Part shown: one piece after another, positions 1 through 4,680 of the stretch
Layout: every line of letters starts with the position of its first letter
How positions within the stretch are numbered: position 1 is the first letter of the stretch
Source: a virus
Lineage: Duplodnaviria; Heunggongvirae; Uroviricota; Caudoviricetes
Length of the DNA stretch: 5,505 nucleotides
IMG/VR virus record: IMGVR_UViG_2690316184_000003
Reading direction: 5' to 3' (one strand)
The notes under the pieces: generated by a model
Databases searched by the model: none
What the model was told of the DNA's origin: nothing
Seen by the model: only the letters and a program-made list of their open reading frames with translations
Position numbers and translations under genes: made by a program

Positions 1-750
1 AACCTTGAAGCCTTACCAAAATATTACTCCCCAAAATCTCCAAAATTGAGCGATGACGCACCGGCGACAGGCTCAGGTGGTTTAACGATTACGGATGTGA
101 TGGCTGCGCAGGGGATGGTGCAGTCGAAAGCACCGCTTGGGTTTGCCTTATTCCTGGCAAAAGTTGGTGTTCAGGATCCTCAGTTTGCGATTGAAGGTCT
201 GCTCAATTACGCGATGGCAATGGATAACCCGACATTGAACAAATTGAGTGAAGAAACCCGGTTACAGATCATCCCTTACCTTGTGAGTTTTGCCTTTGCT
301 GATTATTCCAGGTCTGCGGCAAGTAAGGCTCGCTGTGAGCATTGTGCTGGTACTGGATTTCATAGTGTATTGCGCGAAGTGGTGAAACACTCCAGAAGCG
401 GGGAATCTGTTATCAAGGAAGAGTGGGTGAAGGAATTATGTCAGCATTGCCATGGTAAGGGAGAAGTCAGCACGGCTTGCAGAGGGTGTAAGGGTAAAGG
501 CATTGTCCTGGATGAAAAAAGAACCCGGCTTCATGGCACACCTGTTTATAAGATTTGTGGGCGTTGCAATGGAAACCGGTTTAGTCGTTTACCGACCACA
601 CTGGCACGACGTCATGTCCAGAAGCTGGTACCAGACCTGACTGATTATCAGTGGTACAAAGGATATGCAGACGTCATTGATAAACTGGTAACAAAGTGCT
701 GGCAGGAAGAAGCATTCGCTGAAGCACAATTGAGAAAGGTGACGAGATAA
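1..750 (+). CDS. Q: Late-gene antitermination protein Q (lambda Q family); 5' partial, start codon probably the 3 nt just upstream of the window
   Basis: Frame 1 is open from nt 1 to TAA 748-750; the track start at 46 is an internal TTG. The translation (NLEALPKYYSPKSPKLSDD..., TDVMAAQGM, FAFADYSRSAA, CGRCNGNRFSRLP, C-terminal VTR) matches lambda Q as I recall it (MRLESVAKFHSPKSPMMSD..., FAYADYCRSAA, CGRCKGVGYSRMP, ...VTR). It has four CxxCxGxG repeats. It sits directly upstream of a PR'-like promoter and the lysis genes. Confidence 0.85.
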   Translation, partial: NLEALPKYYSPKSPKLSDDAPATGSGGLTITDVMAAQGMVQSKAPLGFALFLAKVGVQDPQFAIEGLLNYAMAMDNPTLNKLSEETRLQIIPYLVSFAFADYSRSAASKARCEHCAGTGFHSVLREVVKHSRSGESVIKEEWVKELCQHCHGKGEVSTACRGCKGKGIVLDEKRTRLHGTPVYKICGRCNGNRFSRLPTTLARRHVQKLVPDLTDYQWYKGYADVIDKLVTKCWQEEAFAEAQLRKVTR

Positions 751-781
751 GTGATTTTCACCGAAGATGGCGACATGATGC

Positions 782-825
782 TTGCATTTCTCAAAAAATA
801 TGGATAAGATTTTCCCAACGATGGG
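782..825 (+). promoter_or_regulatory. PR'-like late promoter with a downstream -10-like pause element
   Basis: -35 TTGCAT (782-787), 17-bp spacer, -10 TAAGAT (805-810), then tttccc and AACGATGGG (817-825). Lambda PR' as I recall it has the same layout (TAAATT tgactc AACGATGGG), where AACGAT is the sigma70-dependent pause-inducing element needed for Q loading. It lies 32 nt after the Q stop. Confidence 0.65.
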
Positions 826-855
826 CTTTGTATGTCTACCGTTGATGAGTCCAAG

Positions 856-888
856 AACCCGCCGCCGAGCGGGTTAAATTATTTTTTC
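856..888 (+). terminator. Intrinsic terminator (tR'-like) ending the short PR' transcript
   Basis: Stem AACCCGC (856-862) / GCGGGTT (869-875), loop cgccga, followed by a T-rich tract aaattaTTTTTTc (T-run 882-887). About 70 nt downstream of the predicted PR' start. Confidence 0.55.
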
Positions 889-904
889 TTACACGGGGAT
901 ATGG

Positions 905-1435
905 ATGTTATACCGAGATCTTTTGCCTATTTTCTCAGAAAGACCCATATTTAAAGCTCCTGAGGCTGAAAGAATACTTCGTGAGCAATATTCTATCGCC
1001 GCCCCCACTCCTGTAATTCAGGAGATTTATTATGGATTGGCAGGTTATGACAGATTTCAGGAGCTTTATGGGGATCTTAATATTGACCAAATCGAATGGA
1101 AATTGATTGAACTTCCCACTAAAAATTTTTTAACTATCGGGGATAATGCTACTTACCCTGATTTTTTGCATGAGGTCGTTGAAGATTTCACAACCCGTAA
1201 AGGCGATGTATTTATGGATGATGAAATAAAAGCGCATTGGTGTAATTTTGGCACATGGTGTGAACCTCCATTTTTTATAGATCGAGCTTTGCTGAAAAGT
1301 AATACAACAGGGCTTCATTTAATGGAAGGGCATACAAGAGTTGGAACCCTGTTAGGGGCAGTTAAGTATAACTTCGTTAAGCTTGCTAATACTCATAAAA
1401 TTTATTATGCGCAAGCAAAAGAATGTATTAAATAA
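905..1435 (+). CDS. Hypothetical protein, 176 aa, AT-rich cargo (moron) gene of unknown function
   Basis: ATG at 905 preceded by GGGGAT (895-900) as a possible SD; uninterrupted 176-codon ORF. A 60-nt sample is about 37% GC against about 50% in the flanking Q and methyltransferase genes. A strong intrinsic terminator follows. I do not recognise the protein family; it contains YPD-x20-EIK, a possible PD-(D/E)xK-like motif, which is weak evidence only. Confidence 0.7.
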   Translation: MLYRDLLPIFSERPIFKAPEAERILREQYSIAAPTPVIQEIYYGLAGYDRFQELYGDLNIDQIEWKLIELPTKNFLTIGDNATYPDFLHEVVEDFTTRKGDVFMDDEIKAHWCNFGTWCEPPFFIDRALLKSNTTGLHLMEGHTRVGTLLGAVKYNFVKLANTHKIYYAQAKECIK

Positions 1436-1471: not shown

Positions 1472-1493
1472 ACCGCGTTCTCGCGGTTTTTTT
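1472..1493 (+). terminator. Rho-independent terminator downstream of the 176-aa ORF
   Basis: Stem ACCGCG (1472-1477) / CGCGGT (1482-1487), loop ttct, followed by seven T (1487-1493). Confidence 0.8.
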
Positions 1494-3943: not shown

Positions 3944-4051
3944 ATGGTTCTTCATGAAATAAGAATGTTACGCGGTATTTTTAATGAAAATGATAATTAT
4001 TGTCAATTGGTTGTGCGTATTTTTTCATACATGACTGGTAAAGGTGATTCA

Positions 4052-4083
4052 GGCCATCAGAGTTTTGCTGATGGCCTTTTTTC
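4052..4083 (+). terminator. Rho-independent terminator immediately upstream of the holin gene
   Basis: Perfect 9-bp stem GGCCATCAG (4052-4060) / CTGATGGCC (4068-4076), 7-nt loop, followed by TTTTTTcttt (4077-4086). Confidence 0.8.
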
Positions 4084-4115: not shown

Positions 4116-4331
4116 ATGTATCAGATGGAAAAAATATCAACAGGCATTGCCTACGGCACCTCCGCAGGCAGTGCTGGCTACTGGTTTTTACAATGGCTTG
4201 ATCAGGTTAGTCCGTCTCAGTGGGCTGCGATTGGTGTACTGGGAAGTCTGGTTCTGGGCTTTCTGACTTATCTGACGAATCTGTACTTCAAAATCAGAGA
4301 AGACAGAAGAAAGGCTGCGAGAGGAGAGTAA
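4116..4331 (+). CDS. S: Class II holin (phage 21 S-like pinholin) with dual start (Met1 antiholin / Met4 holin)
   Basis: The translation [71 protein letters not shown] (71 aa) closely matches the S21 holin as I recall it. Two in-frame ATGs at 4116 and 4125 give the 71/68 dual-start arrangement. Two hydrophobic segments and a charged C-terminus. The track ORF from 4044 is a GTG extension that runs through the upstream terminator hairpin and is unlikely to be real. Confidence 0.85.
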
Positions 4332-4335
4332 TATA

Positions 4336-4680
4336 ATGGTCCAAAACTATGAAATGATTGTGAAAGGGATCCGCAATTTTGAGAATAAAGTTACGGTAAC
4401 TTTAGCATTACAGGACAAAGAACGCTTTGACGGTGAAATTTTTGACCTGGACATCTCGCTGGACCGTGTTGAAGGTGCCGCGCTGGAGTTTTATGAGGCA
4501 GCAGCCAGAAGGAGCATCAGACAGGTCTTCCTGGATGTTGCTGCCGGGTTATGTGGAGGGGATGAGCAGTCGCCGGAAAAGCGCCCCATAATTTTAGAGG
4601 CGCAGAGTGTGTGGATAACCTACAAAGGAAAACTGCCGGGAAGAATTACTGGTTCACTGAAGACTCCGCCGAAATGGTAA
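4336..4680 (+). CDS. Conserved prophage lysis-cassette protein of unknown function (resembles the small ORF found between holin and endolysin in E. coli prophages, possibly DUF826/YdfR-like)
   Basis: ATG 4336 lies 4 nt after the holin stop, with SD GAGGAGAG (4321-4328) overlapping the holin 3' end, which suggests translational coupling. 114 codons with protein-like composition. The family name is from memory and uncertain. Confidence 0.65.
   Translation: MVQNYEMIVKGIRNFENKVTVTLALQDKERFDGEIFDLDISLDRVEGAALEFYEAAARRSIRQVFLDVAAGLCGGDEQSPEKRPIILEAQSVWITYKGKLPGRITGSLKTPPKW

Follow-up and report, generated by a model that had tools for sequence, protein, structure and literature searches.

The window analysed in this study, a stretch of 5,505 nucleotides, is part of the late region of an Escherichia coli lambdoid prophage and is 100% identical over 100% of its length to several E. 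coli chromosomes. Judging from the sequence, positions 782–888 form the late-gene control cassette of a Qin/SfV-type lambdoid prophage, with a layout homologous to that of lambda PR'. The features of the window are as follows.

1–750, plus strand: Q antiterminator gene, 5' end cut by the window edge, open frame throughout (PF03589, E 1.4e-53)
782–888, plus strand: PR'/pause/hairpin module, starting 32 nt past the Q gene and located upstream of the holin and lysozyme genes
782–787, plus strand: putative PR' −35 hexamer TTGCAT, at the position of lambda TTGACT; TTGCAT or TTGCAA is kept in the SfV, Qin and phi80 subfamilies
788–804, plus strand: 17-nt spacer TTCTCAAAAAATATGGA, presumed Q-binding element, identical to the lambda spacer at 10 of 17 positions when aligned from the −10 hexamer
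805–810, plus strand: putative PR' −10 hexamer TAAGAT, followed by 6 nt (TTTCCC) and then the pause element
817–825, plus strand: putative sigma-70-dependent pause element AACGATGGG, composed of a −10-like AACGAT and a discriminator-like GGG, with the predicted transcription start at A817
817–843, plus strand: predicted 5' stem-loop of the leader, nt 1–4 pairing with 24–27 and nt 6–10 with 18–22 (MFE −7.7 kcal/mol)
831–834 (+15 to +18), plus strand: TATG, which fits the T-N-Y-G consensus of the scrunched pause, 1 base downstream of the lambda TTCG
856–875, plus strand: tR' hairpin AACCCGC-CGCCGA-GCGGGTT, stem 856–862/869–875 with 7 bp, of which 5 are G-C pairs (−10.6 kcal/mol)
876–887, plus strand: non-canonical tail AAATTATTTTTT, the left junction of a cargo cassette, with the U-run 6 nt away from the stem
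876 to about 1505, plus strand: cargo cassette, 35.7% GC compared to 47.6% for the neighbouring Q and methylase genes
905–1435, plus strand: orf176, an AT-rich ORF of 176 aa and the first gene beyond the hairpin
1472–1493, plus strand: canonical terminator ACCGCG-TTCT-CGCGGT followed by T7, the right end of the cassette (scores +22 and +26.6)
between the terminator at 1472–1493 and an sRNA-rich gap: a small TrmB-like ORF, then a DNA methylase gene
4119–4331, plus strand: holin gene (P21-type, PF04971), downstream of PR' on the same strand
4336–4680, plus strand: DUF1327/YdfR gene between the holin and lysozyme genes
from about 5024 to the right-hand end, plus strand: lysozyme gene, annotated under the 100%-identical matches and placed by its open frame

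A lambda-type cassette is defined by a Q gene, PR', a sigma-dependent pause element, a terminator and late genes, the Q-lambda family being PF03589 (PMC9388147). The Q gene of the window is annotated as antitermination protein in the listed genome matches, and its product belongs to the lambda-Q family with a duplicated zinc-ribbon insert. Lysis and late genes follow downstream of PR' on the same strand. This context supports the reading in the earlier note of a lambda-type PR' at which Q would engage paused polymerase.

Lambda PR' reads TTGACT-17-TAAATT-TGACTC-AACGATGGG, and the geometry and the 9-mer of the window are identical to it. The earlier note had described a PR'-like architecture with a pause element 6 nt past the −10 hexamer and had suggested an alignment with lambda; the description proved exact, and the alignment gave the same layout, the same 9-mer and the 10/17 match in the spacer. 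One match to the composite pattern TTG-N20-TANNNT-N6-AACGATGGG was found in the window and none in 200 dinucleotide shuffles; the 9-mer by itself is not rare if one mismatch is allowed (1.24 occurrences expected). The two hexamers, which are conserved in relatives, agree with the sigma-70 consensus in no more than 7 of 12 positions, and a generic promoter scan did not list the site, so that the case for a promoter rests on homology of the architecture and not on consensus strength. TTGCAT is the annotated −35 hexamer of pR' in the phi80 record. The Q-binding element of lambda is located in the spacer between the −35 and −10 hexamers (PMC9388147), and in the subfamily of the window a spacer consensus TTC(A/G)(A/G)AAA....TGG is visible.

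Sigma-dependent pause elements are −10-like sequences, often followed by a discriminator-like sequence, and at lambda PR' the polymerase pauses at +16/+17, the scrunched state favouring T-N-Y-G (PMC9191641). The first transcribed position of the window was placed at A817 because lambda agrees with T-N-Y-G only when the first A of AACGATGGG is taken as +1. With this numbering, TATG would put the pause around +17 to +18. This part of the assignment is weak, and a chance match is plausible.

Compared to known systems, the window shares with the lambda PR'/qut/6S-tR' region the Q family, the −35/17/−10/6 layout, AACGATGGG, a hairpin thereafter and lysis genes downstream. Differences are also apparent. 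The Q proteins of SfV and lambda are only 34% identical (E 3e-42), and SfV-type Q contains an extra zinc-ribbon insert of 42–47 aa. Lambda 6S RNA is 194 nt in length, the predicted leader of the window about 65–71 nt, and only the first 9 nt are common to both. Ahead of the pause element, lambda has a −35-like TTGACT where the window has TTTCCC, and the U-run of tR' is displaced in the window. Phage phi80 resembles the window in its lambda-family Q, the TTGCAT hexamer, the offset of its pause element and the compactness of its leader (about 74 nt), but differs in the pause element itself (AACGCTGGG), the spacer and the terminator hairpin. Its record annotates −35, Q site, −10 and a terminator about 50–80 nt downstream.

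The closest relatives are found in SfV, mEp460, Ayreon, Stx2c and Stx2k phages and in the K-12 prophage Qin (ydfT-quuQ), in which the Q/PR'/hairpin block (window 700–875) is about 90% identical. They are like the window through the tR' stem; past it, their T-run adjoins the stem whereas the window has AAATTATTTTTT. The module was found in 694 of 5,426 complete E. coli genomes (about 13%), and in Stx2k and Stx2c phages it is located upstream of stx2. In K-12 MG1655, Qin carries an intact-looking module downstream of ydfT/quuQ, TTGCAT-17-TAAAAT-6-AACGATGGG with a canonical terminator, and a predicted RNA of 63 nt (locus L104, minus strand 6423–6361, equivalent to NC_000913.3 1,642,422–1,642,360). 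Two natural recombinants are of note. In L029 from IMG/VR, an SfV-type Q and PR' are joined to lambda 6S sequence exactly at AACGATGGG, and L013 has a different terminator at the same distance from PR'. This kind of module is already known and annotated in relatives.

For a survey of the family, lambda-family Q loci were collected from IMG/VR (99 loci of the same PR' type as the window), from GTDB (63 loci, one genome per species) and from phage records (phi80 and phages of Proteus, Erwinia, Cronobacter, Serratia, Klebsiella and Salmonella). The related-locus search in IMG/VR yielded near-identical Q genes only; the diversity came from the GTDB scan and from tblastn against phage records. Among 39 non-redundant leaders, every one has A1 and A2 of the pause element, and at least 90% have T6, G8 and G9. 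We take A2 and T6 to correspond to −11A and −7T in a −10 element. Although the Q proteins range from 37 to 99% in identity, the pause element hardly changes, whereas the spacer between −35 and −10 varies by Q subfamily, as expected if it has a role in Q specificity.

Several short low-coverage GTDB contigs (L213–L232 and L243), assigned to Oceanobacillus, Segatella, Bradyrhizobium, Kitasatospora and others, carry a Q gene of lambda length (621 nt) that in each case is 35% identical to the SfV query. In the one of these loci that was read downstream, L213, the PR' and 6S region equals lambda base for base. These contigs most likely represent contamination of the assemblies with lambda DNA.

A terminator with a positive score (perfect-stem hairpin plus U-run) was found in 36 of the 39 leaders. 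The predicted RNAs are 51–166 nt in length with a median of 65 nt, and 32 of the 36 fall between 51 and 76 nt. The compactness of the PR'-tR' unit, pointed out in the earlier note, is nothing special, and the SfV, Ayreon and phi80 records already annotate the terminator of such units. Leaders of about 65 nt are the norm in the lambda-Q family and the 194-nt 6S RNA of lambda is the outlier. The three leaders lacking a positive score are those of lambda, whose bulged tR' stem is invisible to the perfect-stem search used, of L233, a decayed copy, and of the window. The window is therefore the only intact-looking module among the 39 leaders without a positive-scoring terminator.

The reason lies in the sequence after the stem. 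In comparisons with 35 phage records and with about 600 E. coli genomes, homology stops at position 875, the last base of the stem. In the relatives the sequence continues as GCGGGTT-TTTTTGTG (GGGTT-TTTTTGT), with 4–5 further T's right after GGGTT in Qin-type and 6–7 in SfV-type copies. The window instead reads GCGGGTT-AAATTATTTTTTC and runs into orf176, so that the closing UU of the stem is followed by three A's (876–878). The original U-run is lost because the junction falls exactly at the end of the stem. A score of the d'Aubenton-Carafa type, calculated with ViennaRNA energies and meaningful only for comparing variants, put the window at −50 or −26. The SfV version reached +9.5 or +23, and the terminator at 1472 reached +22 to +27. 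The same junction AAATTATTTTTT is carried by 90 E. coli genomes, including the window; one chromosome with exactly this variant is that of IHE3034 (NC_017628.1 571,028–576,917). A second lineage, 93% identical, has the same tail and in addition a C-to-A change that breaks a stem pair.

The earlier note had expected a terminator within about 70 nt. As regards the hairpin at 856–875 this was right, and the SfV and Ayreon records list its homologue as a terminator; the U-run that should adjoin it is displaced. Taken together, tR' of the window is probably weakened and leaky, its U-run having been pushed off the hairpin by the insertion of cargo. Some termination is likely because the tail is all A/U and has six U's 7–12 nt from the stem. 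As a counterpoint, with the stem ending at 875, release at 882–884 would keep the canonical distance of 7–9 nt, so that termination might yet be reasonably efficient. The earlier note had all downstream cargo shielded from PR' in the absence of Q; for the first cargo gene this is doubtful, given the displacement of the U-run by 6 nt at the cassette junction.

The hairpin AACCCGC-loop-GCGGGTT with a T-run is also shared downstream of three unrelated Q families, i.e. lambda-type, 82-type (PF06323) and the DUF1133/PF06530-type of Sakai Sp10. The sites are window 856–875, L264 1452–1471, L266 1450–1469 and L105 19640–19668. Homology between the modules breaks at the end of the shared hairpin, which looks like a mosaic joint for swapping late-region cargo.

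The cassette inserted in the window holds orf176 (36.9% GC), whose ATG is 29 nt from the hairpin. The promoter scan found no promoter-like site in the cassette, and there is no room past the hairpin for a promoter of orf176 itself. On the right side, SfV-type sequence (GCAGTACGGTAAACACGC...) resumes about 15 nt past the terminator at 1472–1493, which is probably the effective stop for PR' transcripts that pass 887. The orf176 protein matches phrog_8867 (function unknown) and belongs to a small enterobacterial family of hypothetical proteins, of which 22 clusters were found; the family has an invariant E-G-H-T-R motif. It had no match in Pfam or PADLOC, and its AlphaFold model (pLDDT 78) gave only weak fold matches of the ParB/sulfiredoxin/GmrSD-N-like type. 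A blastn comparison of the cassette with phage records gave no match, and tblastn found one Salmonella prophage.

Homologues of orf176 are the first gene after Q in every context that has a Q gene. The adjacent Q is lambda-type in E. coli and Q82-type (PF06323) in the Salmonella prophage, Hafnia, Klebsiella oxytoca and Citrobacter freundii. The terminator ahead of the homologues is canonical in Klebsiella and Citrobacter (L264, L266), with the same AACCCGC..GAGCGGGTT hairpin, and degenerate or absent in Salmonella (L259), Hafnia (L262, L263), L268 and both E. coli lineages. Apparently, the family is sometimes gated by Q and sometimes exposed to PR'. Exposure is not a general feature of this cargo, because a canonical tR' precedes the gene in the Klebsiella and Citrobacter lineages.

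Based on these results, we consider it rather probable that the module is a genuine Q-controlled PR' which yields a leader of roughly 65–71 nt at reduced efficiency, with read-through into orf176. The architecture, the homology, the family-wide conservation and the junction are directly visible in the compared sequences. As regards promoter activity, pausing, Q dependence and termination efficiency, the predicted course would be the following. RNA polymerase with sigma-70 would start at A817, and sigma region 2 would bind again to the −10-like AACGAT(GGG) on the non-template strand, so that the complex would be held, scrunched, at about +16 to +18. The lambda-family Q encoded by the prophage itself would bind the spacer between −35 and −10, load onto the paused complex and make it resistant to terminators, and the Q-modified polymerase would run on to the holin and lysozyme genes. 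Without Q, transcription would arrive at the tR' hairpin (+40 to +59). Most relatives have 6–8 U directly past it, which should lead to the release of a leader RNA of roughly 65 nt. This RNA would start with a stem-loop at its 5' end, continue through an A/U-rich linker and finish with the terminator hairpin and its U tail. In the window, where the cassette is joined right past the stem, the tail would be UUAAAUUAUUUUUU and termination only partial. Some polymerases would release an RNA of roughly 65–71 nt and the rest would cross orf176 to the terminator at 1472–1493.

A more far-reaching version, put forward only tentatively, is that the insertion disabled tR' altogether. PR' would then drive orf176 (ParB/sulfiredoxin-like) in uninduced lysogens, 1472–1493 would be the new Q-controlled stop and the cassette would be a promoter-less moron.

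Three other explanations need to be weighed against the favoured one. The earlier note took 856–875 with the T-run as an efficient tR', so that lysogens would make practically nothing but an RNA of roughly 70 nt and everything from orf176 onward would be silent without Q. We regard this as rather unlikely. It is consistent with the hairpin being the conserved tR' hairpin of the family, with the purely A/U tail and its six U's, and with the lenient terminator scan, which accepts the hairpin; the canonical tR' before the Klebsiella and Citrobacter homologues moreover suggests that orf176 is normally a Q-dependent late gene. However, the A's at 876–878 and the negative score set the window apart from all 36 scored relatives, the original U-run is gone at a junction exactly at the stem end, and the second lineage with this junction has a weakened stem as well. 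The opposite explanation is that the hairpin is dead, PR' serves as a constitutive promoter for a moron-like orf176, 1472–1493 is the real tR' and the '6S-like' product is in fact an mRNA of roughly 675 nt. It would account for the disrupted U-run, for the 29 nt without a promoter-like site ahead of the start codon, for a cassette that has a terminator and no promoter, and for the degenerate or absent upstream terminators in Salmonella (L259), Hafnia (L262, L263) and L268. We nevertheless judge it to be quite improbable: at least some termination is usually seen where a stable, G-C-rich hairpin precedes an all-A/U stretch, and the canonical tR' in L264 and L266 argues against a general need for constitutive expression.

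It is extremely improbable that the module has become inactive as part of a cryptic prophage, or that its conservation stems from a small ORF (782–877 or 832–954) or from an antisense promoter (838 to 809, minus strand). A 30-aa hypothetical protein is called over the leader in some genome annotations, the minus-strand site matches at 9 of 12 positions with a TG, and K-12 Qin, which has the same module, is a cryptic prophage. Yet the Q frame is open through the window and annotated as antitermination protein, and the same module occurs in the inducible phages SfV, mEp460, Ayreon and Stx2k. Moreover, the conserved positions are those of the pause element and not codon positions, and promoter-like hits in the window number 7 compared to 8.6 expected.

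The minus-strand site itself (838–809, TAGACA-18-GAAAAT, preceded by a TG) is directed back into Q, and its sequence overlaps that of the leader. It is unlikely to be meaningful, because such hits are no more frequent in the window than expected by chance.

A further property of the leaders is a predicted 5'-terminal stem-loop. In most leaders of the family, the partner of nt 1–4 (AACG) would be a CGUU at about +24 to +27, and that of nt 6–10 (UGGGC) a Y-rich stretch at +18 to +22; other cases are L004 (788–812) and L104 (minus strand, 6423–6397). In the window leader, nt 1–4 are paired with a probability of 0.93. In an unfitted MAFFT alignment of the family, 81% of the cells pair in register compared to 33–47% when slid. 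Double changes occur at four pairs, with a covariation score reached by 15 of 500 shuffles, and the first 34 nt fold lower in energy than shuffles that keep nt 1–9 (mean z −1.04); in reading these statistics it should be considered that the sequences are mutually related and that the structure was derived from those same sequences. Variants of the pause element are compensated (AATGA/TCATT, AACAA/TTGTT, AACA/TGTT). RNAalifold on the 36-nt leader alignment predicted no structure, and stem searches sequence by sequence gave none that was significant individually. The stem-loop thus emerges from folds of single sequences and from counts of pairs only, and the evidence for it is moderate. By sequestering the RNA copy of the pause element, it may serve a conserved function in all leaders of the lambda-Q type. 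Speculative roles would be to protect the 5' end and to hold the obligatory GGG apart from the C-rich 5' arm of tR'. A description of such a stem-loop was not found in the literature on Q cassettes and PR' leaders consulted.

These leaders can also be viewed as candidate small RNAs. In Stx phages, RNase E processes the PR'-tR' transcript, 258 nt in length, into the Hfq-binding sRNA StxS of 74 nt; antitermination leaders were suggested as a source of sRNAs, with lambda 6S RNA named as the StxS analogue (PMC7547250). The earlier note was right in naming StxS as an sRNA processed from a PR' transcript. In its working, StxS (Sp5, Sp15, 933W) is a likeness of the module studied here, as a constitutive PR' transcript ended at tR' in lysogeny becomes a stable regulatory RNA (PMC7547250). 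StxS differs in its 258-nt primary and 74-nt processed forms, and in that Hfq binding and the targets rpoS and stx1B were shown for it; sequence similarity between the two was sought by Rfam, with no match. From the sequence, we infer that lysogens would contain a constitutive short RNA.

The canonical leaders fold into a 5' stem-loop, an A/U-rich linker and the terminator (z −3.35 for SfV-type, −4.28 for Qin-type); the fold of the window leader is less distinctive (z about −2). StxS comes from phages with a Q of the Q933/Q82 type, unrelated to the lambda-Q family. An Rfam search of 782–888 with E values up to 1 yielded no family matches. RNAduplex predictions of the leaders against the 5' region of hha gave long, non-specific duplexes, and the window was no better than shuffles. 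Two papers, on the diversity of Stx pR' (PMC6266700) and on phage SfIV (PMC3851460), contain nothing on the leader of this SfV/Qin-type module.

HnrS (EcOnc10-12), a 66-nt multicopy prophage sRNA, is similar to the leader in size, in its intrinsic terminator and in its location in the late region of lambdoid prophages (PMC13502914), but is not the same RNA. An identity of the PR' leader with HnrS was rejected, the SfV-type leader being absent from Sakai Sp10. A PR'-proximal candidate of Sp10 with the same end hairpin (NC_002695.2 1,940,601–1,940,667) was also rejected, as it is single-copy in Sakai compared to three identical copies of HnrS.

The PR'/pause/tR' cassette is textbook knowledge and widespread, and its confirmation adds little. 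More relevant is that lambda-Q-type leaders are typically about 65 nt in length with an architecture like that of Hfq-type sRNAs, which after StxS makes the very common SfV/Qin-type leader a candidate for a host-directed sRNA. In addition, insertion of cargo at the mosaic joint past the tR' stem can turn a Q-gated position into one exposed to a constitutive promoter. If true, this would be a route by which prophages express cargo in lysogens without a dedicated promoter.

Two further segments of the window, both on the plus strand, gave matches in Rfam. Dyads of Hfq-binding prophage sRNAs of the AgvB/AsxR type have been described in the zone between the late promoter and the lysis genes. The segment 3434–3622 falls into this zone; it strongly matches the sRNA family STnc100 with 114.5 bits (gathering score 47) and is 76% similar to a segment of Sakai Sp10. 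Just upstream of the holin gene, 3986–4082 gave a sub-threshold match to SgrS (24.8 bits, gathering score 37, E 7.7e-4) that covers no more than the 3' seed-like stretch and the terminator at 4051–4077. It could be a mimic of the SgrS seed or a chance match driven by the terminator.
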